Positions 30,804 through 61,975 of a stretch of 64,000 nt of DNA are shown here, in pieces (positions within the stretch are counted from its first letter, which is position 1; each line of letters opens with the position of its first letter). Location of the stretch: IMG/VR virus record IMGVR_UViG_3300027710_000009; one strand, written 5' to 3'. Source of the stretch: a virus. Lineage: Duplodnaviria > Heunggongvirae > Uroviricota > Caudoviricetes. A program made the position numbers and the translations under genes. The notes below the pieces were generated by a model. It was not told where the DNA came from. It ran no database searches and worked only from the letters and a program-made list of their open reading frames with translations.

Positions 30804-30875
30804 AGTTCTCCTTTGTGCGACTTCTAGCTCACACACACTCTACTTGCTGTTTAGTGTCCAGCGTGACAAAAATAT

Positions 30876-31172
30876 TTATTGTAATTGCATAATCATTCTA
30901 ATTAAACCTACTGTGTCGATGGTTGTAAGAAGAATGTAATTAGCCAGCATGCCGAAGGAACCACGACTGTAAGCACACCCAGCGTATATAGCACAACCTG
31001 CAATCCAGACTGGGTACATGTAAAGAAGGGGTGGATTAGGCACGGTGAGGGCCATAGTGAGAGAACAGCCAATAGATATAGCCCAAGCAAGGACCTCAAA
31101 ACAAAAACGAACTCGATCGCTTTTGTAATCTTCTTTGATCCAATTGGCAGTTCCACTTAATACTTCGATCAA
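30876..31172 (-). CDS. Small membrane protein
   Basis: Three hydrophobic segments. Confidence 0.55.
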   Translation of the reverse strand: MIEVLSGTANWIKEDYKSDRVRFCFEVLAWAISIGCSLTMALTVPNPPLLYMYPVWIAGCAIYAGCAYSRGSFGMLANYILLTTIDTVGLIRMIMQLQ

Positions 31173-31450: not shown

Positions 31451-31479
31451 ATTATACAGTTTGTGTTAGGAATTAGCAA
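31451..31479 (-). promoter_or_regulatory. Sigma70-type promoter
   Basis: TTGCTA (31479-31474), 17 nt, TATAAT (31456-31451). Confidence 0.6.
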
Positions 31480-32221
31480 TACGCAGTTTTGCCAATTTAG
31501 CCTTTTCAAGAAGTTTGATATACATCCAACCAATATCAAACTCCCAAGGTTTCAGCGATAGCTTTGCGCTACCAGGGTCCAGATGATGATTATTGTGAAG
31601 CTCTTCACCGCCAACAACAATACCCCATGGACTAATATTTCTAGATTGATCTCTCGTTGTGCCATTTCTATACCCCCACCAGTGTGCAACACCATTGATA
31701 ACTCCTGCGGCCCAGAACGGAATCCAGAGCATCTGTATGCCCCATATCAAGGCGCCAATCCAACCAAAGACAATGATGTTGAACAAAAGGAGAATGCCAA
31801 TGCCAAGTCTGGAGTGAGGAGTGTATACGTGAAGCTCCATCCAATCAGCAGGAGTACCAACACCATATGAATCAACCATATCTTTATCTTTTGATGCCGC
31901 ATGATATAATCCTGCCCCCTTAAAGAAAACTTGTTTGATTCCATACACATGTGGACTGTGCGGATCACCCGGCTCGTCACTGTATCTGTGATGTTTGCGA
32001 TGTATGGCCACCCATTGTTTGGTAACCATACCTGTTGTTAACCATAGCCAAAAACGCATAAAATGCGCTACCACAGGATGGAATGTCACTGCACGATGTG
32101 CCTGACTACGATGTAGGTATAATGTGACGCAGGCAATAGTAATATGTGTTACTACTAGTGTGTATAATAGTTCAATCATTCGTTCATTCGCCATTTGTTT
32201 TCTGGCAGGCCATAATCCCAT
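31466..32221 (-). CDS. Membrane fatty-acid (acyl-lipid/acyl-CoA, delta-9-type) desaturase
   Basis: Three His boxes HRSQAH, HRKHH, HNNHH; EFDIGW. Confidence 0.9.
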   Translation of the reverse strand: MGLWPARKQMANERMIELLYTLVVTHITIACVTLYLHRSQAHRAVTFHPVVAHFMRFWLWLTTGMVTKQWVAIHRKHHRYSDEPGDPHSPHVYGIKQVFFKGAGLYHAASKDKDMVDSYGVGTPADWMELHVYTPHSRLGIGILLLFNIIVFGWIGALIWGIQMLWIPFWAAGVINGVAHWWGYRNGTTRDQSRNISPWGIVVGGEELHNNHHLDPGSAKLSLKPWEFDIGWMYIKLLEKAKLAKLRIANS

Positions 32222-32808
32222 TTTGGATCCATTTCAACATTCCATCTGGTGGTGGCAACATTAAAATCTGGAATCTTCATTTCTTTAGGATTACTTGCAG
32301 GTTCCAAAATAACAACACGATTGTTTGGTTGTGCGGCAAATTGTCCATTGTCGCATTTGATAAAGTTAAAAGATTTATGATCCTCAACATCCTCACCGTG
32401 TCCGCAATCAAGCGTATTAAAATCAGGATGACAAGAATCTACAGTAAAAAGATACTCGCCTTCTAACCAAGATCCGTCCTTCATTTTAATTTTACATCTC
32501 ATGTTTGCTATCATTGCTTTTTTAATCACAGTGATATCATAAGACATGCTGTTCCATAATTGTAAGAAGTCTAGTGGATACGGATCACCTTCGATGGGTT
32601 TCCAGCAGTAAGCGTGTAGTGGAAGTTTGTCATACAACGCACCGTATTGATTCAAATACGCTTCAATTCTAAATGCTTGACTTCTTTGTGACTTGATTGA
32701 GATCCACCAGCATGGTTCAAGTTCTCCGTGTCCTTTTTCAAAATCATAGAGAAATTCTCTACGAATAAAACATTTCACGGGCGGTAGATTCGCAACTAAG
32801 AATGACAT
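32176..32808 (-). CDS. Hypothetical protein
   Basis: 210-aa co-oriented ORF. Confidence 0.65.
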   Translation of the reverse strand: MSFLVANLPPVKCFIRREFLYDFEKGHGELEPCWWISIKSQRSQAFRIEAYLNQYGALYDKLPLHAYCWKPIEGDPYPLDFLQLWNSMSYDITVIKKAMIANMRCKIKMKDGSWLEGEYLFTVDSCHPDFNTLDCGHGEDVEDHKSFNFIKCDNGQFAAQPNNRVVILEPASNPKEMKIPDFNVATTRWNVEMDPKWDYGLPENKWRMNE

Positions 32809-33146
32809 TACTTTCCTTGTTTGATCAATTTGAGTTCTTTAATTTCTTGTTTGGTTTCTGTCAACAGATTGCATGCACTGTCAACTTTTTGTTGTATGTT
32901 GACCCACCAGGTCATTATGTCGCGGAATGTTTTTACTATCCACAAACACCATAACACACTGGCGGTGGCAATTACACTAAGTATCACTTCAATGATACCA
33001 GCATGATTAAACGAGTGACTGACTGTTGCGTATACTGCAAGGAACACCACCAACAATAATATGGCTTTTTCCCATAGCAGACATTTTAATTGTTTTTGTA
33101 TAGGGCAAGCAAGTTTCATTTTGTTATTGTAGCCTTCAACATCCAT
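32808..33146 (-). CDS. Small two-TM membrane protein
   Basis: Two hydrophobic segments and a coiled-coil tail. Confidence 0.5.
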   Translation of the reverse strand: MDVEGYNNKMKLACPIQKQLKCLLWEKAILLLVVFLAVYATVSHSFNHAGIIEVILSVIATASVLWCLWIVKTFRDIMTWWVNIQQKVDSACNLLTETKQEIKELKLIKQGK

Positions 33147-33553
33147 GAGTGTTTGCGGTGCGCATCCATACGTCCTGCAAGAAAATCTGCTAGACCTTCT
33201 TCGCCTTGTGCTGTGGCAATGTCAAACACGTATTTGAGAATTTTGACCATTTTGTCGCTGTCTGCTAACAATATTGCAATCATATCTCCGTCGTCGGGTA
33301 TGTTGGTTTGATCATCAATCTCACTCAACATAGAAAATCTTGTGTAGCTGGCAGGCACAAAAGCACCAGCACTGCGAATTTCTTCTGCAAACTGATCAAT
33401 GCTTCCGTACACTTCTTCGTAGATTTTTCCAAACAAGTCATGCAGTTGGCTAAAAAACGGGCCTGTCACATTCCAGTGAAAATTGTGTGCTTTTAGATAA
33501 AAGCTAAATTCGCTTGCAAATGCTACCTTGAGTGCTTTGTGTAATTGTTCCAT
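33116..33553 (-). CDS. dps: Dps/ferritin-like DNA-protecting protein
   Basis: KAHNFHWNVTGPFFSQLHDLF...DQFAEEIR; HRKHSWML. Confidence 0.88.
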   Translation of the reverse strand: MEQLHKALKVAFASEFSFYLKAHNFHWNVTGPFFSQLHDLFGKIYEEVYGSIDQFAEEIRSAGAFVPASYTRFSMLSEIDDQTNIPDDGDMIAILLADSDKMVKILKYVFDIATAQGEEGLADFLAGRMDAHRKHSWMLKATITK

Positions 33554-33569
33554 TTTTTATATTGCCTTG

Positions 33570-34601
33570 TTATGCATATGATCTAGTTCCGCCACCGCCA
33601 AAGTTGATTCCAACATTTGCGTTGGTAAAATCAAGAGTATCAGCGTTTGATATTGTTTGCCATTTGTTGTTGATTTTATGATAGGCGCCGGTAATTGGTC
33701 GCCACTGACCGCCGTCTTTCACCCATCCAGCGGTTACTTTAGCCCAGCTGCCACCTACTTTGATAAAAGGAAGCGGACCATTAATCAATCTAAGAATGGC
33801 AAACCCAGAACCACCTGCTTGTGTGGCCGTGCCACCATTGGCATAAGGGCCAATGTCAAATCCATCAATGTTGGTTGGAGCACTAGCAGTTCCTGCATAC
33901 ACAGTATTTGACAATGTGATACTGGCATTTGCCCAACTGCTACCAGTTATGCCTGGGTTGGCACCTTCGTCGTAGCTGCCACTGATTGCGCCGCCAGCAC
34001 CACCATAAAAGCCACCACCACCGCCACCACCACCACCACCGTCACTAGAATGGTCTTGTCCGTTACCACCAGTACGGAATGCATTTGCACCAGACCCAGT
34101 TGCACTGGCATTTTTTCCATTGCGAGAGCCACGATTACCTGCACCACCACCGCCTGCACCACCACCTGCTACTGCAAGAACTACTCTATCAGCTTGTGCA
34201 ACACGAAACAAAGATATCACAGTAGCACCACCGCCTCCACCACCGCCTCCTGACGTTCCTGATCCACCTGCGTTGCCGCCGCGTCCGCCACCATATCTAG
34301 TTCCAGCGTCATCAACAAAAGAAGATCCAGCAGTGCCGCCACCAGTTCCTCTAACTCCACTTGAGCCGCGACCACCACCAGTGCCAACACTTACCTCAAG
34401 TATATCACCAACGTTTGCGTTAAACGTGACTTTGATCAACTGTCCAGCAGCACCGCTTCCGCCTGTGCCTGTGTCGTTGCCGCCACCACCGCCGCCGCCA
34501 CCCCATAGGTATGCGGTAATAGGATTAATGAATCCTTGTTGTAGTGGAAATATCTGCTTGCGATCAGTAGATGCAAGAGATGTAATTTCTGATCCGCTCA
34601 T
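33570..34601 (-). CDS. Glycine-rich protein, probably virion structural
   Basis: LWGGGGGGG, VAGGGAGGG and poly-Gly runs; C-terminal KVGGSW...KDGGQW...KINNKW repeats. Confidence 0.6.
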   Translation of the reverse strand: MSGSEITSLASTDRKQIFPLQQGFINPITAYLWGGGGGGGGNDTGTGGSGAAGQLIKVTFNANVGDILEVSVGTGGGRGSSGVRGTGGGTAGSSFVDDAGTRYGGGRGGNAGGSGTSGGGGGGGGATVISLFRVAQADRVVLAVAGGGAGGGGAGNRGSRNGKNASATGSGANAFRTGGNGQDHSSDGGGGGGGGGGFYGGAGGAISGSYDEGANPGITGSSWANASITLSNTVYAGTASAPTNIDGFDIGPYANGGTATQAGGSGFAILRLINGPLPFIKVGGSWAKVTAGWVKDGGQWRPITGAYHKINNKWQTISNADTLDFTNANVGINFGGGGTRSYA

Positions 34602-34861
34602 GTACGTCCTAGTTCTTTACAAATTGCTAATGCTTCGCGTGTCCATGCACTTATGTCACTGCTGCCAATTTCGTCAACGTTGCCAACATTATCAGCAACT
34701 TCTTCTGCGGCCTGCATGATAACAACAGGACCGTGCGCAGCCAACGCTTCTTTATGTTGAGTCATAATTCTGCGTATGATTGCACTTTGTACTGCATTAC
34801 GAGAATCATTGTTCTCGTTGACAGGATTAAGATCGGAGTTAAACAATTCATACACAAACAT
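34598..34861 (-). CDS. Putative head-packaged protein (leader ending PVNE)
   Basis: MFVYELFNSDLNPVNE N-terminus. Confidence 0.5.
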   Translation of the reverse strand: MFVYELFNSDLNPVNENNDSRNAVQSAIIRRIMTQHKEALAAHGPVVIMQAAEEVADNVGNVDEIGSSDISAWTREALAICKELGRT

Positions 34862-34863
34862 GA

Positions 34864-35466
34864 TTATACCTTTGGCGTAAGTTTTTGTATTTGACCCCTT
34901 AGGGAACTCATTGCTTGTGGATTCTTAAACACTGGCTCTAGAGTGTTTGCAAGTTGTCCTAGTTGTTGGGCATCCATTGAGTTGGTTTTGCTAGGGTCTT
35001 TACTTAGAGCTTGTTGTATTTTACCAACATTCAGTGTTGGATCCATGGTCTTCAATGTGGCAATATTTTTTGTAAGATCGCCTTGTTCTTTTTGTTTCAT
35101 TGCTGCCTGTTGTGCAGGATTTGGTTGTTGGTTCAGTGGTGTTTGTGGTTGCACAGTGCTAGTGCCTGCGCTGACGTTGGCAGCGGCATTGGCTTGTGTT
35201 CCTTGTCCAGCTGGATTTATATTAGCAACAGGACTATTGGGATTGCCCGGAACATCATCTTCTGGCAACACAGCAAATTTATGATATTCAAGCATGAGCT
35301 CTTGTGCATACTGTTCCACGTCCTCACCTACCAGTCGATCTCCAAAGCCGTGTTTCTTTCCAGACTTCTTTGGGTTGTCTGTGCCACGTACCTGATCGCC
35401 TGGCTTTTGGTCAGGCTCGCCTGCGAACTTGTCCATGCTCTCCAAGAGCTTGCGCATATCACTCAT
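34864..35466 (-). CDS. Putative head-packaged protein (leader MSDMRKLLE)
   Basis: L-L-E and V-G-E motifs; low-complexity Q/N/P middle. Confidence 0.55.
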   Translation of the reverse strand: MSDMRKLLESMDKFAGEPDQKPGDQVRGTDNPKKSGKKHGFGDRLVGEDVEQYAQELMLEYHKFAVLPEDDVPGNPNSPVANINPAGQGTQANAAANVSAGTSTVQPQTPLNQQPNPAQQAAMKQKEQGDLTKNIATLKTMDPTLNVGKIQQALSKDPSKTNSMDAQQLGQLANTLEPVFKNPQAMSSLRGQIQKLTPKV

Positions 35467-35780
35467 TTTTTACCAGCTTTCTTCTTTTTGGCAGTAAACG
35501 GTGTCTTTGGTTTGTAACTACCGCCAAACAACGTGCCTACATTGGGACTACTGCCACCAGTCATTGCACTGCCAATACTGCTTGAGCCAGTGGTTTCTGC
35601 TACACCTTTTTTAGCTGCCATTTTGGCACGTTCTTTTTCTAGCCACCTGTCAGACTTGGCTTTGTCTTTGGCAATTTGCTCATTGGGCGTCAACGGTTTG
35701 GTTTCTTTGCGTTTGGCCAAGCCTGCTCTTGCACTGTCTGTGTTGGCACGAGCTTCTGCAACGATTTCACTGATCTTCAT
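35463..35780 (-). CDS. Putative head-packaged basic protein (leader MKISEIVAE)
   Basis: N-terminus resembles T4 capsid-targeting sequence MKTYQEFIAE; internal KGVAE; TAAATA upstream. Confidence 0.6.
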   Translation of the reverse strand: MKISEIVAEARANTDSARAGLAKRKETKPLTPNEQIAKDKAKSDRWLEKERAKMAAKKGVAETTGSSSIGSAMTGGSSPNVGTLFGGSYKPKTPFTAKKKKAGKK

Positions 35781-35800: not shown

Positions 35801-36127
35801 TTAGCCCAGAGTAAACTCGTTGCCAAACAGATCGACTCCGTTTAATTTGGTATTTTCAATTTGAAGATCAAGCCATCCAGATAAATCTTCAACACGCACA
35901 ATCCAACGACCTAGTCCTAGATCTACAAAATGTGTTTCATGTATCTTGTAAGGATCTCTAATGTCAAACATTCGTTCAGACAACATTTCGCCTGAAGGTT
36001 CTAAATACATGCGAACAGGGATATAACGACCAAAATTCCTCAAACCTTTGGCAAGAGGATCCTTGAGCATTTTCTCTCTGCTGAGATTCCACGACACATG
36101 AAAATCAATGCGAACCTGATTGTTCAT
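35801..36127 (-). CDS. Hypothetical protein
   Basis: Co-oriented ORF, ATGA overlap. Confidence 0.55.
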   Translation of the reverse strand: MNNQVRIDFHVSWNLSREKMLKDPLAKGLRNFGRYIPVRMYLEPSGEMLSERMFDIRDPYKIHETHFVDLGLGRWIVRVEDLSGWLDLQIENTKLNGVDLFGNEFTLG

Positions 36128-39100
36128 TTGTTAAATGCCCTGCTACGCACACCGCCACGCTGACGAATTTTTTCTAGCTCTGCTTGTGCTTGTTCAATTT
36201 CTTGTGCAATAGGATCCATGTTCATGCTCTTGAGCTTTTTGTACACATGATCCCATATTGCGGCCTTGTCAATGTCTTGCCCAGCGTCTGACATTTGTTG
36301 TGCCAGCTCTGCTGTGCGTTTGATCATTTGTTGCTTCCACCCACGTAAGGTCATGCGGCCCATGCCTGCACGTGGTGCAAACTCGCTGTTGTATGGATCT
36401 TCTTTATTGTACTGATACATGTCTTCGTCAATTTCGTTTGGATCCACATATTCATTGGAGCTGACATCGCTGGAATGAAAACTGTGCCTACCATAGTTGT
36501 ACAAGTTAACGACAACAAAACGTTTCATGTCACCAAAGCTGTCAATGTCACCAGTTTTGCCTTTGAATTGCACATCCCCTGTGATAATGACAGGATCGCC
36601 TATGTTCAGCTCTTCTGTGTTTTCGCGCATGTTCAATGACTTGAAGCGATTGCGCTTGTAATCTAGTCCAAGACCACTTTCGTCTACATAATAATCATCT
36701 GATGTTAGACTAAGAGCATACTTTACATATTTTTTATTATTGCCTAGGGCCTTTTCCAACGCTTCAACACCGTACGGTGTAAATGTATCACGCTGATGAT
36801 CCCAGTAACCAGGAATGTCGCTGATCTCAGTAGTTATATTTTGAATCTGCCCTTTGATTTTATCATCAATATCAAACATGCTTTCCGCCACGCCTTGACT
36901 TCTGTGTTGTCTATATGGGTTAAGGAAATCTTCTTCCCAGTGTCCTTCTTTCACCGACCAAGCAAAATCAATAATGCGTCCCATGCCGCCGCCTATTTCG
37001 CCGAACAGGTCGCTGAGATGTGACACTTCTTCAAAAGTGGCACCAGTTCCGTCCATTATTAAACTGATGATCCAATCGGGATCGCCGCTGTCATTTTCTT
37101 CTTGGTATCTAGCCCAAAGTTTGGGATTTTGCACAATTCGTTGGCCTAGTTTGCCTAGCTCCGTAACTAGAGTAAATTCACGATCCATTGCACCAGTGGT
37201 CATTTTATTCATCATGGTGTCAAATTTCTGATCACCAGTTGCTTCCGCTACATCTTGCTTGTCATCTTTGGGCACAGGTTTGCCTGCCCACTTCTTCAGT
37301 GCTTGGTGGCCTGCCTTGGAGTCTTTGACTTTCTTGGCCAATGCTGGATCTTGTCTCAGCATCCAACCTGGCTTGGCACCTGTAGCACCTTCTTCAATTT
37401 CTTTTTTATTGTCTAGGTCCTTTTGACGCAGACTTTTCTTCATTGTATCAATCTTCTTGCCTGCGCCCACTTGGTCTAAGTTAGCATCCTTGGCCGCTTG
37501 GTTGTACTTGCGTTTGGCTTGCTTTAGTTCTGCACCTTCTGCTACTGTTGCATCAACTGTGCCCATGTAGTGGTGATCTAATACTTTGTAACCTTTGCGG
37601 CGATAGTGTGCAATAGCTTGGTTAATGGCTGCTTCTCTATCAATACGAGAAGTTTGCGTGATGCGAATTGATTTTTGAATAGCTTCTTTGCGCTTGCTGA
37701 CCATAGGGTGATTGGGATCAATCACAGTAACGCCAATACGATGTGTAACTGGCCCTGCGTCTTCTGCCACGGTCTGTTGTTTATTTTTTTCTAATTCTAA
37801 TTCTTTTTCTTTTCTTTTTTCTTCTTTGTCGGCTTTGATCTGATCTGGGTGTTTGTAGGTCTTTCCAGTTTTCTCATTTCGACCACCAGCCCACCCATAG
37901 GTAGTACGGAAATGTTTTGCTTCCGCTACACCTTGCTCATCTTCAGGTCGGGTAGTCAACACAAACTTCTTGCCAGCATTGAATGGCTTGGCCATCATGG
38001 TCATTGCAGACTTATGTGCGGCTTCCTTGTCGCGGAATTGAAATGGTGTGCCCATCTTGTCTTTGATGATCTTGCCATTGGCACGAATGTACCAAGTTGA
38101 CGGAGCAGGATCTGGCACATGGTATTCATCATCTTCTCTACCGCGGCGACCCAGGCTGGGCGCAGTTGGACTTGCAAAGCCATGGTTGTATCCACGGTTG
38201 CCTTCTAAATGTAATTTTTTCATGTTCCTTGCAACTTCTCCTGGACGTACATCCTTGGTCAAGCTCATGCTGTATCGAGGATCGTTCTTTTGTTTTTTAC
38301 TGGCAACTACGCCAACACCTGCGGCATCTTCATTGACACTGTCATTGCCTTCAGCATCAAAATCATATTTGTCGTATTGAATATGGCCATCGTGCCCAAT
38401 GCCATACAGCACTACCATAACATAGTCATCGCCGTATTCAGGCTCCCATCCTAATTTTCTTAATTCATCTGCATTGTCACCGTCAGTCCAGTACTGGTAA
38501 GCCAATGGAAATAACTTTGCCTTGTATTTTTCCTCGTTTGGCACACGCGATGGATCAAGATCATAGGGCTCAAATTCTTGTGTTGGAAACATCTCGTCAG
38601 CATCAGCTGGAGTAATTTTTCCAGTCATTTGTCTCATCGACTTGTCAAATTTCTCGTCGCCTGTGGCCTCAGACATGCCATTGGAAGGACCGTATACAAA
38701 TGCTTTTGGATTGAGTCCGTACTTGTCTGCAACAGCGGCAATGAAAGCATTTACTTTGCTGTTTGGAATCTGTGCGCCAACTTTCTTTTGAATTGGCATG
38801 TTGTTTTTACCTTTACCTTTGATATAGATATCAACTAACTGGTCTTTGGTAATGATAGCACCTTCGCCCAGGCCTTCTAGTTCTTCTGCTGGCCAGCTGA
38901 TGTAGCTGTTGCCATTGATGTCGCCTGCTTGCACAACAAACACACCACCGTTGTCGTAGCCTTCGTCTTGGCCAATTTCCCAACCTGCGGCTGCAAGTGT
39001 TTTTTCTACGCGAGGATCCTCGTCACCTTGCCACCACTGTGCGGCTAGACGTTTTAATGTTTCGTCGCTGAATCCATCGTTGCCGTCATCTCCGCCGGGT

Positions 39101-39876
39101 GGTGCAAATTCATTTAAGTCAGCGGCTGGTTGGGGTTGTTTAACTGCTTTGAGCTTGGGTGCGGCAGCTGGTGCTGGTGCAGGTGCGGCATTGGAATCTG
39201 GTATTTTGTTAAAAAGATGTGCTAGTTCTGGAGTGGCACGGCCATACAGTTGTTGCAGTACTTGAGCACTGGCTTTGGGGTCATTGCGTACTTGGTTCCA
39301 CAACTCACGTACTTGTGTTCCGTGACTGGCATTAATTTTCTTGCCGTTTACTTCAACTGCTTTTTCACGTTCGTTGACAATGAGCACATACTGATGTTGA
39401 TCAGCAGTTGTACTGTCTTGTAGGCTTCGGAATGTTTTGAATGGTTTTGGATCGCCTACTGATTTACCGTCGGGTATCTTGCTGGGTCTTCCTGTTGGGG
39501 TGAGTGCAGTATAATTGGCATCAACTTCTAGTCTCTTGAGGTCCGGCTCACCCACTGCAAATATCATCACAGTTTGTTTTGGGTCAAAACCAATTGTACG
39601 AATATAGTCATCGGGCATGTAAGGACTAGTTACTTCGATCACATGATGATTGTTCACACCTGCGGCGGTCATCAACTGTAACTTGTCGCTGAAATTAAAA
39701 GGACTTTTAACAGCATCAGTTTTGTTTGACGTGCCTATGTAAACATTGTCCATGCCAAATTTGGCCTGCAATGTCTCAAATACCTCTTTGTGCCCAAGAT
39801 GGAAAGGCTGAAAACGTCCTGGATAAATTACTATTACCCGTTTGATTTCACCTTCAAATAATTGCTGTATAAACAT
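36124..39876 (-). CDS. 1250-aa modular protein: N-terminal HxGH nucleotidyltransferase plus about 14 short modules separated by [VLIM]-x-E motifs (putative polyprotein)
   Basis: YPGRFQPFHLGH and KSPFNFSDK; repeated VAE, LNE, LGE, MSE, VNE, IEE, VDE, IDE; TAAATA at 39905-39900. Confidence 0.75.
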   Translation of the reverse strand: MFIQQLFEGEIKRVIVIYPGRFQPFHLGHKEVFETLQAKFGMDNVYIGTSNKTDAVKSPFNFSDKLQLMTAAGVNNHHVIEVTSPYMPDDYIRTIGFDPKQTVMIFAVGEPDLKRLEVDANYTALTPTGRPSKIPDGKSVGDPKPFKTFRSLQDSTTADQHQYVLIVNEREKAVEVNGKKINASHGTQVRELWNQVRNDPKASAQVLQQLYGRATPELAHLFNKIPDSNAAPAPAPAAAPKLKAVKQPQPAADLNEFAPPGGDDGNDGFSDETLKRLAAQWWQGDEDPRVEKTLAAAGWEIGQDEGYDNGGVFVVQAGDINGNSYISWPAEELEGLGEGAIITKDQLVDIYIKGKGKNNMPIQKKVGAQIPNSKVNAFIAAVADKYGLNPKAFVYGPSNGMSEATGDEKFDKSMRQMTGKITPADADEMFPTQEFEPYDLDPSRVPNEEKYKAKLFPLAYQYWTDGDNADELRKLGWEPEYGDDYVMVVLYGIGHDGHIQYDKYDFDAEGNDSVNEDAAGVGVVASKKQKNDPRYSMSLTKDVRPGEVARNMKKLHLEGNRGYNHGFASPTAPSLGRRGREDDEYHVPDPAPSTWYIRANGKIIKDKMGTPFQFRDKEAAHKSAMTMMAKPFNAGKKFVLTTRPEDEQGVAEAKHFRTTYGWAGGRNEKTGKTYKHPDQIKADKEEKRKEKELELEKNKQQTVAEDAGPVTHRIGVTVIDPNHPMVSKRKEAIQKSIRITQTSRIDREAAINQAIAHYRRKGYKVLDHHYMGTVDATVAEGAELKQAKRKYNQAAKDANLDQVGAGKKIDTMKKSLRQKDLDNKKEIEEGATGAKPGWMLRQDPALAKKVKDSKAGHQALKKWAGKPVPKDDKQDVAEATGDQKFDTMMNKMTTGAMDREFTLVTELGKLGQRIVQNPKLWARYQEENDSGDPDWIISLIMDGTGATFEEVSHLSDLFGEIGGGMGRIIDFAWSVKEGHWEEDFLNPYRQHRSQGVAESMFDIDDKIKGQIQNITTEISDIPGYWDHQRDTFTPYGVEALEKALGNNKKYVKYALSLTSDDYYVDESGLGLDYKRNRFKSLNMRENTEELNIGDPVIITGDVQFKGKTGDIDSFGDMKRFVVVNLYNYGRHSFHSSDVSSNEYVDPNEIDEDMYQYNKEDPYNSEFAPRAGMGRMTLRGWKQQMIKRTAELAQQMSDAGQDIDKAAIWDHVYKKLKSMNMDPIAQEIEQAQAELEKIRQRGGVRSRAFNK
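36883..37935 (-). repeat. Dispersed 15-bp junction repeat encoding x-x-V-A-E (consensus CAAGGTGTAGCGGAA)
   Basis: Copies at 36883-36897, 37243-37257, 37537-37551, 37762-37776, 37921-37935; another copy at 35595-35609 in a different gene. Confidence 0.6.
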
Positions 39877-39924
39877 GTGTGATCTTACCCTAGATCACTT
39901 ATTTATGCTGTTTTATAGTTTGGC

Positions 39925-40452
39925 TTACAGACGTTCAAGCAGCCAAATATAGAATGGACTAGCAATAGGCAGCTGATAGGTACCATTAAATCCTAAACTT
40001 GTGCAGTTTGTTAGTCTATCCGTAGTTGTACCATTTAGCTGTTGTGGCACATCAAACTGGTACATGCTTTCGCTGTAAATAAGTTGGTGTAAATCAACAT
40101 CGTTTATAGTAATTTTTTCCACATGCAATAATAAATCTCGAGTCCATCCACCGGGTACAAATCCACGTGTGTCACCAAGTGCTTTGTTTTTAAGTCGTAT
40201 AGCCAGCATATGTTCGCCAGGCGTTACACTGCGAGAAAATTCAAATGTCTCTAGTGTGGTTTGTTGGTACTCTGGGGTATTCTGAATAGAATTGCCGTCT
40301 AGTAGCACAATTCCTCGGCTGCTAGACGGCGCATTAATTGTTCCACCTAACACCAACTGATTATCAAATACAATTTCAAACTCTGGTTTTTTAGTCCAGT
40401 AAGTACCGCTGAGTACTATCTTGAAATGCAATTCCTCAGTTGAGGTTAGCAT
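39925..40452 (-). CDS. Hypothetical protein
   Basis: 175-aa co-oriented ORF. Confidence 0.6.
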   Translation of the reverse strand: MLTSTEELHFKIVLSGTYWTKKPEFEIVFDNQLVLGGTINAPSSSRGIVLLDGNSIQNTPEYQQTTLETFEFSRSVTPGEHMLAIRLKNKALGDTRGFVPGGWTRDLLLHVEKITINDVDLHQLIYSESMYQFDVPQQLNGTTTDRLTNCTSLGFNGTYQLPIASPFYIWLLERL

Positions 40453-41650: not shown

Positions 41651-42391
41651 TTATTCTTCATCAATCAGGCTTTTGAATTCTTCTATCTTTGCAATCAGTC
41701 TTGGGTCCATCATGCCCAAAACAGTAGCAATATTTTTATCGTGTACGTAAATATAACCTCCCCAGATCCAGCTGCCTTTTTCCAATTGGTCCCAAAGGCC
41801 ATTGGGCACTTTGATATCATCGCCAAGATTTTTCAAATAGGCCGCAATTTGTCCTTTGTTTTCCAAACTGTACTTTCCATCTCGCATGAGAATTCGATAG
41901 GCCCATTTTACTTTGTTCTTACGCAATGTAAACCCATCTAGAATAAGTTTTTCTTTTTCAGCAGAATCAGGAGACATGATACTGTAAAAATGAAAATTGT
42001 TTCCATACAACAGTCGACTGGCCAGATCTTTTAGCACCTGTTCTTGTGAACTGTAGAATTGAATATATGGTTCTTCGATGCGTATTTTCAACAGTTCATG
42101 TCCGTTGACCTTTGGGCTGGATTCATGATAGATCAACTGTTCTTTAATAATTCTCAATAGATTTGAATCATCATTGCCAATTGGTTTTTTACGCCAACTG
42201 CCAGCCCAGTTGTAATCTCGTTGTTTGTTGTTTCGCCACGTGATTGCATCTTCAATGTCTTGATTGTTTCGAAGTATACTGCATCCGACCACTTGGATCG
42301 CAAGTCTGTAGAGATAATGCCCGTGCATTAACTTTACAGTTTCTTGTTGCAGAATATTAGGATTTAATCCCGTCCAGTACGATATATCCAT
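41651..42391 (-). CDS. Hypothetical protein
   Basis: 246-aa co-oriented ORF. Confidence 0.6.
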   Translation of the reverse strand: MDISYWTGLNPNILQQETVKLMHGHYLYRLAIQVVGCSILRNNQDIEDAITWRNNKQRDYNWAGSWRKKPIGNDDSNLLRIIKEQLIYHESSPKVNGHELLKIRIEEPYIQFYSSQEQVLKDLASRLLYGNNFHFYSIMSPDSAEKEKLILDGFTLRKNKVKWAYRILMRDGKYSLENKGQIAAYLKNLGDDIKVPNGLWDQLEKGSWIWGGYIYVHDKNIATVLGMMDPRLIAKIEEFKSLIDEE

Positions 42392-44657
42392 TGCTGTCTA
42401 TGCTTGGGGTTAGTGCCAATTGCGTGGCAGTGGTGTCAAAAGTAATTTTGTCGTCTTGATAATCAACCAGTACAGTGGTGTTGCTACCCATACGGTCGAA
42501 TAAAATTTTGCGACTCAACGGAACTTTGATCAAATCATTGATTTTTCTTTGCAAAGGCCTTGCACCCATTTTAGGATCAAACCCTTGTTCAATCACATGA
42601 TCAATTGCAGTGTCGGTGAGTTTAACTCGTATGCCTTTTTCCAACAACAGTTCGTTCATGTCGTTGATAAACTTGGAAACAATCATTTTCATATTGCTTT
42701 TTTCTAGTTTATCAAATTTACAAATAGCATCTAGTCTGTTGCGAAACTCTGGTTTGAAAAAGTTCTTTACAGCTTTGTCGTCTTCGCCGGCTTTTTGTAA
42801 ATCTCTACCAAAACCAATGTTGTTGCGTTCGTTATCTGCGGCACCTAGATTAGAAGTCATGATCAAGATAGCGTTGCGACAGTCTGCTTTTTTGCCATTG
42901 CTACTTGTGATAATACCTTCGTCCATCACAGTCAACAAGATGTTGCTAACGTCTGGGTGTGCTTTTTCAATTTCATCAAACAAGATAACACAGTTAGGAT
43001 TCTTTTCTACTTCGCTGATCAACATGCCACCGCCAAGGTTGCTGTCGTCGTAGCCTACATATCCGGGTGGAGCACCAATAAGTTTAGCCACACTGTGCTT
43101 CTCTTGGTATTCACTCATATCATATCTTAGTAGTTTCATCCCAAGATTTTCGGCCAACAACTTAGCAAGCTCAGTTTTACCAACACCAGTTGGTCCAGTA
43201 AACAAAAAGCTACCAATGGGTTTGTTCAATGCTTTGAGTCCAGCACGGCTGACATAGATACGTTCTAGCACTTGTTCAATTGCAGAGTCTTGACCGTAAA
43301 GTTTAACTTTAATTTTAGCTTCAAGTCCTTGCACAGCAGAATGATCACCTTCGGTTTCGCTAGCCAATTGCTCAACCGGAATTTTGGTAAACTTACTCAA
43401 GCAATCAATAATGTTTCTTTTGCTCACAGTCCAGTTTGTTTGATAGATTTTGGCCTTGGCACAAGCAGTGTCAATCAGATCAATTGCCTTGTCCGGTAAT
43501 TTCTTGTCAGTTTGATAACGAACACTTAGTTCAACTGCGGCATCAATTGCAAAGTCATCAATTACTCCGCCATGGAATTCTTCAAAGTGTGAACGCAGAC
43601 CGCGCAGGATATCTTTGGCCACAGCAGGAGTTGGTTCATCCACTGTGAGTCTATAGAAGCGGCGCATGAGCGCACGATCCTTTTCAAAACTCTGTGTATA
43701 TTCTTCCCATGTGGTTGATGCAATAACCTTAATGCGACCTTTGGTCAATGCTGGCTTGATCATGTTAGCAAAGTCTACATTGCTACCAGATCCAGATCCT
43801 GCACCACGCATTTGATGCGCTTCATCAATAAACAAAATACTTTTGCCACGAGTGTTCAATGCTTTGATAACATCACGTAGTTTTTCTTCAAACTCTCCGC
43901 GATACTTTGAGCCTGCCAGTAGATTGCCAATGTCTAGATTAAACACTGTGTAGTCACGCAGATAGTCAGGAACTTCGCCTTTGATAATTTTACGTGCAAG
44001 TCCTTCTGCAATCGCAGTCTTGCCAACACCAGCATCACCAACCATGAGCACGTTTGATTTGTTTCGCTTGGCCAACACATGAGCAATCTCTTCTAGCTCG
44101 TGTTCACGCCCAATCACTGGATCAATTTTTCCTTGTTTAGCAAGTTCATTCAAGTCATCGCAGTATTCTTTTAAGATTTCCAATGCTCTTTGCTTTCCCG
44201 CATTCTTGCGACTACTGCCTTCTTTGTAGTGATCATTATAGTACTCAATAAACTTGGCACGATCAATTCCGTACTTGATAATAAAGTATGCGGCATGGCT
44301 GTTTTGTTCACCAGTTAGACTCAAAAACAAATCCATGACCTGCATGTGATTACGACCGCTAAACAATACCTGTGTCAGGCTACGGTTAAACACACGTTCA
44401 AGTGCATGGGTTTTCTTAGGCTGATAGTCTTCTTCGTAATACAGGTTACCTGTGTCAAGACGATTGTTATAGATTTCCAACTCATCAAGCATGACGTCTA
44501 TTTCAGTGCCATAGCTTCGTAGCAGATCACCAAAGGGTTTATAATTGATGATTGCAAATAAAAGGTGCTCTAGCGTCACATACTCGTGTTTGTGTCGTTT
44601 GGCGTTTTCGCCGGCAGCATTAATGATTAACTCAATCTCTGGATTTGCTTGTATCAT
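42357..44657 (-). CDS. clpA: ATP-dependent Clp protease ATP-binding subunit (ClpA-type)
   Basis: Clp-N HEYVTLEHLL; GDAGVGKT/FIDE; GPTGVGKT/LFDE; no M-domain; IGF ClpP-docking loop (NNIGFGRD). Confidence 0.92.
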   Translation of the reverse strand: MIQANPEIELIINAAGENAKRHKHEYVTLEHLLFAIINYKPFGDLLRSYGTEIDVMLDELEIYNNRLDTGNLYYEEDYQPKKTHALERVFNRSLTQVLFSGRNHMQVMDLFLSLTGEQNSHAAYFIIKYGIDRAKFIEYYNDHYKEGSSRKNAGKQRALEILKEYCDDLNELAKQGKIDPVIGREHELEEIAHVLAKRNKSNVLMVGDAGVGKTAIAEGLARKIIKGEVPDYLRDYTVFNLDIGNLLAGSKYRGEFEEKLRDVIKALNTRGKSILFIDEAHQMRGAGSGSGSNVDFANMIKPALTKGRIKVIASTTWEEYTQSFEKDRALMRRFYRLTVDEPTPAVAKDILRGLRSHFEEFHGGVIDDFAIDAAVELSVRYQTDKKLPDKAIDLIDTACAKAKIYQTNWTVSKRNIIDCLSKFTKIPVEQLASETEGDHSAVQGLEAKIKVKLYGQDSAIEQVLERIYVSRAGLKALNKPIGSFLFTGPTGVGKTELAKLLAENLGMKLLRYDMSEYQEKHSVAKLIGAPPGYVGYDDSNLGGGMLISEVEKNPNCVILFDEIEKAHPDVSNILLTVMDEGIITSSNGKKADCRNAILIMTSNLGAADNERNNIGFGRDLQKAGEDDKAVKNFFKPEFRNRLDAICKFDKLEKSNMKMIVSKFINDMNELLLEKGIRVKLTDTAIDHVIEQGFDPKMGARPLQRKINDLIKVPLSRKILFDRMGSNTTVLVDYQDDKITFDTTATQLALTPSIDSNGYIVLDGIKS

Positions 44658-50943: not shown

Positions 50944-51158
50944 CTACCCTTTATAGCTATTTATGCTGGTGCCTAATAGCTGGGCATTGTTGAAAAAATC
51001 CTGGATAGCCTAATACTTATTGTTATTTGCAGAATCTAAACGTTACACATTACACCATAGACAGGTATCCGTAAATATTCATGTAGACTTGTTTGCCAAG
51101 TCTAGCCAAGGCAAACATGAAAAACATCTACATTACATCAACGACAGGGGAGTCAGAT

Positions 51159-61438: not shown

Positions 61439-61462
61439 AATTAACTCTCCTGTGTATGCTAT

Positions 61463-61975
61463 TTATTTGAGGAACTCGGCGGGGTCTAAATCATAGTACA
61501 AGCTGTTGATACGATGAACGCCCAACTTGTACAGTACAAAACTGCTCACACTAGATCCACGCCCTACTCCCCAAACAATACCATTTTCTCGCATGACATC
61601 TACCAGATACTTCATGTAGCGCAAGAGCATGAAAGCATCACGCTCTTGGTACATGAGCAATTCTTGTCCCACACGTTGCAGTTCTTCATCTGTGGTGCAT
61701 TGATCCAGTGTCCATTGAGCAATATCAAAATTCACATATTGCTCGGGCATGTGCCATTGTGCTTGCTGATATTGATCAAACTCTTCAACTGTTACATCGT
61801 AGGGCTTGTAGGTTTTTAGAGCTGGGATGTCAACGAACAATGACCGGACTGCATGGTTAAACACAGTGGGATCATCAACCAAAAATTGTGTAAGGTCTAG
61901 ACTGGGCTGAGCATACAATAGCTCGCAAAGCTCGCTTTCGCTTGCATGGCTCAATCCAAATTGATCACGTTTCAT
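61463..61975 (-). CDS. DNA polymerase III alpha (DnaE)-like fragment lacking the catalytic PDxD
   Basis: RVGQELL...YLVD...GVGRGSSVSSFVLYKLG...DPAEFLK then stop. Confidence 0.7.
   Translation of the reverse strand: MKRDQFGLSHASESELCELLYAQPSLDLTQFLVDDPTVFNHAVRSLFVDIPALKTYKPYDVTVEEFDQYQQAQWHMPEQYVNFDIAQWTLDQCTTDEELQRVGQELLMYQERDAFMLLRYMKYLVDVMRENGIVWGVGRGSSVSSFVLYKLGVHRINSLYYDLDPAEFLK

Follow-up and report, generated by a model that had tools for sequence, protein, structure and literature searches.

A single open reading frame (ORF) on the minus strand at positions 36124-39876 of a 64,000-nucleotide stretch of Caudoviricetes DNA (IMG/VR record IMGVR_UViG_3300027710_000009; hereafter, the window) encodes a 1250-residue protein that consists of an enzyme head followed by a series of about 13 small, freely exchanged units, about 15 units in total. 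The units are modular and are shuffled between relatives, their joints share a motif ending in glutamate (Glu), the chain opens with a short leader that ends in the same way, and a T4-type prohead protease is encoded by relatives. The protein is probably a capsid-targeted precursor that the prohead protease would cut into an NMNAT-like nucleotidyltransferase (NTase) and a set of small proteins alternating between acidic and basic. An earlier reading of the bare DNA (hereafter, the sequence-only reading) had already proposed a polyprotein of this kind. Comparison supports its independent modules and its Glu-specific borders of the prohead-protease type, and adds a conserved N-terminal leader resembling the T4 capsid-targeting sequence (CTS) and a T4-type S77 protease encoded by relatives. 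The ORF that it delimited is real, though the strand had to be corrected to minus since the plus-strand frame is riddled with stops, and its first module proved to be a recognisable enzyme, a PF01467 nucleotidyltransferase.

Shuffled modules and the joint motif

A protein search over 5.8 billion proteins identified 85 relatives of similar length, and an exhaustive profile-free search with residues 230-1250 (E <= 1e-3) returned at least 1503 cluster representatives at 50% identity. When mapped by BLASTP, homology occurs in blocks whose order is rearranged between proteins. Collinearity over the full length, which the sequence-only reading had named as an argument against a polyprotein, is decisively absent, the homologs being reordered, non-collinear mosaics. 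Block borders pile up at residues 253/254, 338-341, 401-404, 511-514, 559/560, 650-653, 702-710, and 775-782, and further at 826-831, 874, 994, 1064, 1080-1085, and 1148, which match the Glu sites picked out earlier. Border peaks lie within 3 residues of [LIVMF]-x-E in 39% of cases, compared with approximately 10% for shifted peaks. Searched one by one, as had been suggested, each segment of the query recurs in 7-121 other metagenomic proteins, in other order and behind different upstream neighbours. Projection of module starts by homology, not conditioned on Glu, gave 360 distinct contexts, which are not phylogenetically independent and most of which differ in the five residues ahead of the motif; Glu occupies P1 in 91% of them and [LIVMF]-x-E precedes the start in 86%, against background rates of 7.2% and 2.0%, respectively. 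The joint logo reads (K/Q/E)-(G/D)-[L/V/M/I]-[A/N/D/S]-E followed by [F/G/D/N/S/A].

All 15 Glu sites listed in the sequence-only reading are present in the contexts that it gave. With a slash marking the joint, they are LFE8/G, LNE256/F, LGE338/G, MSE403/A, VNE516/D, LHLE558/G, VAE652/A, VAE705/D, VAE780/G, IEE829/G, VAE878/A, VAE998/S, VDE1066/S, MRE1085/N, and IDE1151/D. The enrichment over shuffled sequence that had been called for is found for the strict motif [LIVMF]-x-E-[GASDN], with 14 copies against 6.7 +/- 2.4 in 5000 shuffles (p ~0.006), but not for the loose motif [LIVMF]-x-E, with 23 copies against 19.4 expected (p 0.2). The count within the protein is by itself suggestive, not strong; the proposed junctions hold 13 of the 14 strict copies. 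An extra strict site, VKE977/G (36946-36948, minus strand), lies inside the module of residues 879-998 and is without support from a homology border; it could be a further cut, freeing a 21-residue C-terminal piece. The five V-A-E joints of the gene are encoded by differing codons, which indicates that the constraint acts on the peptide rather than on a DNA repeat.

A mini-leader, ATGD(E/Q)KFD..M, had been seen twice in the protein, and it does start at residues 404 and 879, each time directly behind a motif. Across the 213 family proteins retrieved, 26 copies occur in 25 proteins, ahead of at least four different downstream sequences, and all but one are preceded by [VML]-x-E. The gp22-like scaffold protein of a related contig described below, G005 (L024:2063-3190, equal to L026:187-1314), ends in ...TFNE/ATGDKS, with the same E/ATGD element that opens several of the cargo modules. 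This mini-leader may be derived from the scaffold or bind to it.

Two regions covering four junctions, residues 257-338 and 1060-1250, were modelled with AlphaFold2 using family alignments; MAFFT alignments of query stretches with single-module fragments (A1 and A2) were misaligned and were kept out of folding. Residues 257-338 are predicted to form a small alpha/beta domain with a core predicted local distance difference test (pLDDT) score of about 88 and both junction flanks below 50; a Foldseek search of this fold against the PDB gave no significant match. In the second model, residues 1060-1087 are disordered and residues 1089-1144 form a confident SH3/KOW-like barrel (pLDDT ~85), for which Foldseek retrieved the NusG/Spt5 KOW domain (E 4.5e-4, root-mean-square deviation 2.0 over 56 columns). 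The pLDDT then dips below 50 at residues 1147-1151, exactly the IDE/D joint, and a low-confidence three-helix tail follows. Since the four junctions lie at pLDDT below 50 between confident folds, the joints are predicted to be exposed linkers.

The leader, the nucleotidyltransferase head, and the cassettes

The first eight residues, MFIQQLFE (39853-39876; the modules described in this section are all on the minus strand), are a candidate capsid-targeting sequence that ends in L-F-E followed by G, as judged from conservation and from resemblance to T4. Across 50 NTase-headed homologs, conservation of M1, F7, and E8 reaches at least 90%, and the residue after the leader is G, D, A, or S in about 50 enzyme-headed homologs. 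For the 206 family members retrieved with an initial Met, the N-terminal logo reads M-[FKRN]-[IL]-x-[DQE]-[LIF]-[FLI]-E, examples being MKANEFITE, MKAHEFVVE, MRAREFITE, and MKINQILE, and [LIVMF]-x-E falls at residues 6-12 in 62%, compared with 12-20% in two controls. In the T4 record, IPII and IPIII begin with MKTYQEFIAE/A, gp24 begins with MAKINELLRE/S, and the gp23 cut site is FLTE/A. Both MFIQQLFE and the family N-termini are similar to the T4 capsid-targeting sequence and to the gp24 propeptide, a likeness that is one of resemblance only. The T4 decapeptide is an experimentally defined CTS, of which the N-terminal part, residues 4 and 7 above all, serves targeting, while residues 8 and 10 serve cleavage; an Asp at the cleavage position stops processing and leaves targeting intact (PMC9026906). 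Both the function of this sequence and the rules of processing by gp21 are established (PMC9026906; PMC5694885). Identical modules in the family are found either after another module or straight after a leader, with an identical boundary behind the Glu (e.g., ...DLNE/FAPPGG and MRLYE/FAPPGG, respectively), as is expected if both arrangements give the same mature protein.

The leader is followed by a predicted NMNAT-like nucleotidyltransferase of the cytidylyltransferase superfamily (HxGH) at residues 9-256 (39109-39852), with a Pro/Ala-rich linker running to LNE256. The match to PF01467 has an E-value of 2.2e-8 and a score of 34.8 bits, over the curated cut-off of 21; the head also matches phrog_395, and the closest solved structures are archaeal NMN adenylyltransferases (1f9a, E 8e-5). 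The features of a PF01467 member are in place, with HxGH and a second motif of the ISxT..R type in a Rossmann-like domain. Conserved in the 50 homologs are H26-x-G28-H29 and S184-H-G-T-x-x-R190 (H26, G28, H29, S184, T187, and R190). An NMNAT-like head invites the idea of NAD-related counter-defence. Over the whole chain, Pfam and PHROGs gave no match beyond the nucleotidyltransferase, and neither a zincin-like MPTase nor another peptidase domain was found with them in the 1250-residue protein. Among hallmark conflict domains (MPTase, ParB, ART, methylase, lysozyme, etc.), Pfam detected none in this protein, returning PF01467 only. A megablast search against phage records gave no match, nor did an exact 40-mer search of IMG/VR.

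Sharply differing segments between the Glu sites had been described in the sequence-only reading, and the charge of the protein indeed swings from segment to segment, with isoelectric points (pI) of ~4.0-4.6 in the acidic and 9.3-10.3 in the basic ones. The most widespread cassette is the acidic FAPPGG...GLGE module at residues 257-338 (38863-39108; pI 4.05), which occurs in 121 other proteins, where [LIVMF]-x-E ends 96 of the 99 distinct contexts upstream of it, and is also found straight behind N-terminal leaders. Next to it lies the basic module GAIITK...MSE at residues 339-403 (38668-38862; pI 9.7; 15 proteins, 12 distinct upstream contexts). The acidic module at residues 404-516 (38329-38667) opens with the ATGDEKFD..M mini-leader and is found in 17 proteins, with [VM]-x-E in 12 of its 13 distinct upstream contexts. 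Six basic modules follow. The first, the 42-residue DAAGVG...KKLHLE at residues 517-558 (38203-38328), occurs in 29 proteins, with [LIVMF]-x-E in 21 of 21 distinct contexts. GNRGY...QGVAE at residues 559-652 (37921-38202) is found in 58 proteins, with KKLHLE/ or PVAE/A ahead of it, and AKHFRT...TVAE at residues 653-705 (37762-37920) in seven, with [VM]-x-E in six of six distinct contexts. The module ..GPVTHRIGVT...TVAE at residues 706-780 (37537-37761) is present in 49 proteins, with the motif in 23 of 26 distinct contexts, and also, behind IQE/G, in a 612-residue protein from a cultured Synechococcus phage, BUCT-ZZ01. The last two each have 49 residues, namely the helical-looking GAELKQ...EIEE at residues 781-829 (37390-37536; 27 proteins, motif in 23 of 23 distinct contexts) and GATGAK...DVAE at residues 830-878 (37243-37389; 16 proteins, motif in 13 of 14).

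The acidic module at residues 879-998 (36883-37242; 26 proteins) carries the second mini-leader, ATGDQKFD..M, followed by DREF..LG.LG.RIVQNP, and its core is also found straight behind N-terminal leaders (e.g., MKINQILE/DAEPMDREF). It is followed by the acidic module SMFDID...YYVDE at residues 999-1066 (36679-36882; eight proteins, motif in six of six distinct contexts) and by a basic 19-residue mini-module, SGLGLD...NMRE, at residues 1067-1085 (36622-36678; 13 proteins, motif in nine of nine distinct upstream contexts), which has two different downstream partners and is disordered in the AlphaFold2 model. The chain closes with the acidic SH3/KOW-like beta-barrel module at residues 1086-1151 (36424-36621; 67 proteins, motif in 46 of 53 distinct contexts) and a helical C-terminal tail ending in SRAFNK at residues 1152-1250 plus the stop (36124-36423), which is always the last module and in 60 proteins stands nearly always right after the KOW-like module. 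In 46 of 50 enzyme-headed homologs, the same KOW barrel and helical tail form the end of the protein, and total lengths range from 478 to 1601 residues. The gene is a fixed frame (enzyme head, KOW-barrel/helical tail) around a hypervariable middle of cassettes.

Protease-bearing relatives and the genomic setting

Among the ORFs scanned in the window, no S77 match was found. The IMG/VR contig G005 (197 kb, estimated to be 57% complete) encodes a DNA polymerase 74% identical to that of the window; the spacing between its gene and the family genes with leaders, which form a tandem array on G005, is similar as well. Roughly 140 kb away, G005 has a T4-type head module consisting of an acidic core protein, a 214-residue Peptidase_S77 protease (L024:1444-2088; E 2e-23), the gp22-like scaffold, and gp23, the capsid protein, with a propeptide ending in YLRE/NASSG. 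Contigs of 356-371 kb from lake metagenomes bear close copies of this capsid protein and protease. BUCT-ZZ01, a cultured phage of the Kyanoviridae, encodes an S77 protease as well (E 2.8e-48); its 612-residue family member (ON615601.1, 33658-35496) lies between terminase and baseplate genes and contains TEE/ATGD in addition to the IQE/G ahead of a THRVGV module. Relatives of the polyprotein carry ParB, GNAT, Zeta toxin, HD, GH19, and LysM domains. A 308-residue protein of G005 (L022:4373-5299) begins with the leader MRLRE/ and a FAPAGG module, continues through a hydrophobic segment of Ala/Gly to a GH19-type lysozyme/chitinase-like domain, and may be a capsid-addressed wall-degrading enzyme; the genes adjoining it encode ParB-like domains behind MKA.EF..E leaders.

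In the window, the gene shares its surroundings with auxiliary genes and a family-B DNA polymerase of the T4 type. Directly downstream of it are three small genes on the minus strand that share modules with family polyproteins. The nearest (35463-35780) encodes a basic 105-residue protein with the leader MKISEIVAE/A and an internal KGVAE/T, which resembles a stand-alone cargo gene and matches polyprotein modules in part. The second (34864-35466) encodes a 200-residue protein with the leader MSDMRKLLE/S; it shares homology with P0059 and P0154 of the family in their N- and C-terminal parts. The third (34598-34861) encodes an 87-residue protein whose leader-like start, MFVYELFN, has Asn in place of Glu and whose body matches a module inside more than 20 family polyproteins. 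The unknown ORFs flanking the polyprotein gene, at 35801-36127 and 39925-40452, were considered as paralogs and rejected.

Further along the minus strand, 33570-34601 encodes a 343-residue, extremely glycine-rich protein with long GGGGG runs and weak matches to phrog_29022 (virion structural, E 4e-8) and Gly_rich_2. Beside the DNA polymerase, at 31466-33553 (minus strand), lie a fatty-acid desaturase (PF00487), a protein of the phrog_3704 'ferredoxin' family, and a ferritin/Dps-like protein (PF00210). Located 2.5 kb upstream of the polyprotein gene, 42357-44657 (minus strand) encodes a full-length two-ring AAA+ protein of the ClpA/ClpB type (phrog_4871, E 2e-242) with the domains Clp_N, AAA, AAA_lid_9, AAA_2, and ClpB_D2-small. 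This ATPase was rejected as a processing factor because proteolysis by Clp machines is processive and is not directed at defined motifs. The T4 late promoter TATAAATA was sought upstream of the polyprotein gene and is absent. The heptamer ATAAATA shows a complete strand bias in the window, where 10 of 10 copies lie on the coding (minus) strand (e.g., 39900-39906, 30873-30879, 50958-50964, and 61460-61466), several of them 15-60 nt upstream of gene starts, that of the DNA polymerase gene included; it may be a promoter element of the phage.

Proposed route, alternatives, and known systems

From these observations, we infer a route in which the protein is targeted and cleaved, and its modules are retained in the head, ejected, and active in the host. 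The precursor gene would belong to a T4-related lake phage of approximately 370 kb, and the system would amount to the internal-protein system of T4 fused into a cassette polyprotein. MFIQQLFE would act like the T4 CTS and bring the 140-kDa precursor into the core of the assembling prohead, where a T4-type S77 prohead protease, a gp21 homolog, would cleave behind the Glu of the leader and of the [V/L/M/I]-x-E joints. The products would be an NMNAT-like nucleotidyltransferase of ~27 kDa, about a dozen small acidic and basic proteins of 4.6-13.6 kDa, and a 19-residue peptide, with predicted masses that include 27.4, 8.8, 6.9, and 13.1 kDa. These would remain associated with the packaged DNA, and some of them, at least, would enter the host alongside it. 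The middle of the gene would be a cassette region, with modules exchanged in frame at the joints. It is possible, though we advance this generalization tentatively, that T4-related giant phages of lakes and oceans use one capsid address peptide to load interchangeable cassettes that the prohead protease separates, the protease motif doubling as an in-frame exchange joint; this would be a combinatorial delivery of injected effectors and would take in thousands of protein families of unknown function.

Several points weigh against a processed head cargo. The site at E558 (LHLE/G) is atypical because its P3 residue is His, and the 360 joint contexts are, as noted, related to one another. The joint at E1151 is never seen shuffled, since the two modules that flank it nearly always travel together; of the grounds for this junction, the motif and the predicted disorder remain. 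The likeness of the leader to the T4 CTS spans just 8-10 residues, and the link to a protease comes from relatives rather than from the genome of the window. A late-promoter-like ATAAATA element 24 nt upstream of the polyprotein gene is uninformative because the same seven letters also stand ahead of the DNA polymerase gene and occur overall as often as expected by chance. The gene is located among replication and auxiliary genes, away from head genes, an objection tempered by the T4 record, in which the ip genes likewise lie outside the head cluster.

In the main alternative, the protein would instead remain uncut, as a multidomain 'polyvalent' protein of 140 kDa that acts in the cell or is injected, with its (Q)G-V-A-E-G joints serving as hinges or recombination-tolerant linkers that resemble protease sites. 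An established class comprises large phage proteins that combine 2-15 unrelated domains, some of them packaged unprocessed (PMC5512222), and the ParB, GNAT, Zeta toxin, HD, GH19, and LysM domains of the relatives are typical of that class. Nevertheless, a passive linker leaves unexplained the invariant Glu at P1 and the hydrophobic P3, the recurrence of the same boundary behind N-terminal leaders, the varying codons of the joints, and the retention of fold-less pieces of 19-49 residues as units, and the lineage possesses a matching protease. We consider an uncut protein rather unlikely. Cleavage could also take place with a different outcome, the pieces serving mainly as core or scaffold filler and as counter-ions for a very large capsid, most of them leaving it or staying inert rather than acting as host effectors. 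Most modules are small, highly charged, alternating between acidic and basic, and without a recognisable enzymatic fold, cleavage of the T4 core proteins yields short peptides (PMC5694885; compare gp22, gp67, gp68, and internal peptides II and VII), and the G005 scaffold bears the same E/ATGD element. Filler is quite improbable, however, for a chain that begins with a nucleotidyltransferase whose catalytic motifs appear intact. In relatives of the protein, the same modules are joined to ParB, lysozyme-type, and other enzymes, and cassettes turn over to an extreme degree, as is commoner in conflict proteins than in structural material. The lack of enrichment of the loose motif is what chance or composition, with no organised feature, would produce, but the strict motif does exceed expectation, all but one of its 14 copies fall on borders of homology blocks, and 86% of family borders bear the motif against a background of 2%; chance is accordingly counted as refuted.

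If the joints of this probable precursor are cut, a single gene would give rise to about 15 capsid-packed proteins, and tailed phages would be using a polyprotein strategy otherwise tied to RNA viruses and retroviruses. The leader and the hydrophobic-x-Glu joints would then provide a simple rule by which a very large set of unannotated phage proteins could be read as head cargo, with at least 1503 clusters at 50% identity matching modules of this one protein. Hundreds of small modules would become candidates for the first proteins met by the host (anti-defence, DNA-binding, or metabolic enzymes like the NMNAT-like head), and the cassettes and joints would offer natural parts for loading foreign proteins into T4-type capsids.

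The T4 internal proteins IPI, IPII, and IPIII and Alt resemble the polyprotein in having a short N-terminal leader that ends in hydrophobic-x-Glu. Other features shared with the T4 internal proteins are a small, basic or acidic, sequence-variable cargo, a gp21-type (Peptidase_S77) protease in the lineage, and genes outside the head cluster. T4 internal proteins are defined by the CTS and not by their mature parts. In T4, each gene supplies one cargo that undergoes one or two cuts, whereas about 15 units are fused here, with a motif at each joint and in-frame shuffling; the polyprotein is also known from sequence alone, and no homology of its mature parts to IPI, IPII, or IPIII was detected with PHROGs, Pfam, or tblastn against 50,697 phage records, which gave no T4-group match. 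The T4 prohead core proteins gp67, gp68, and gp22 offer a second likeness, as precursors cut in the prohead at several hydrophobic-x-Glu sites into small charged peptides, but they are conserved structural proteins of short length that neither include enzymes nor exchange cassettes.

The sequence-only reading had named both T4 gp21 and phiKZ gp175 as precedents, of which the first is the relevant one. In phiKZ, 201phi2-1, and SPN3US, a Glu-specific prohead protease (gp175/gp245, recognising (S/A/G)-x-E or A-x-E) cuts many head and inner-body proteins, these phages have ejection proteins too, and multi-site cutting of head proteins is described in phages of the phiKZ type (PMC5694885). Cleavage there mostly strips long propeptides from single proteins, and shuffled cassettes are not described; moreover, the polyprotein motif has the hydrophobic P3 of the T4 type, and the head module of the lineage is T4-like. 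Polyvalent proteins, a class spanning phages and conjugative elements, are likewise long phage polypeptides of many unrelated domains that are predicted to travel with the DNA, and processing of these injected proteins by their own zincin-like MPTase domain has been proposed (Iyer, Burroughs, Anand, de Souza, and Aravind, 2017; PMC5512222). With about 15 units of independent distribution, the present protein falls within their range of 2-15 unrelated domains, and ParB, GNAT, Zeta, HD, and lysozyme-type domains are found in relatives of its gene. Polyvalent proteins, however, would process themselves if they are processed at all, whereas the joints here carry the motif of a trans-acting prohead protease and the units are mostly tiny and non-enzymatic. 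Polyproteins in tailed phages are thus less unprecedented than had been claimed, given that multi-site processing of head proteins and injected polyvalent proteins have already been described. No paper joining a CTS with a polyprotein of shuffled cassettes was found in a search that was thin on subscription journals. The components (CTS with gp21 processing, multi-site cutting, and polyvalent proteins) are known, and their combination in a fused array of shuffled cassettes appears to be new.

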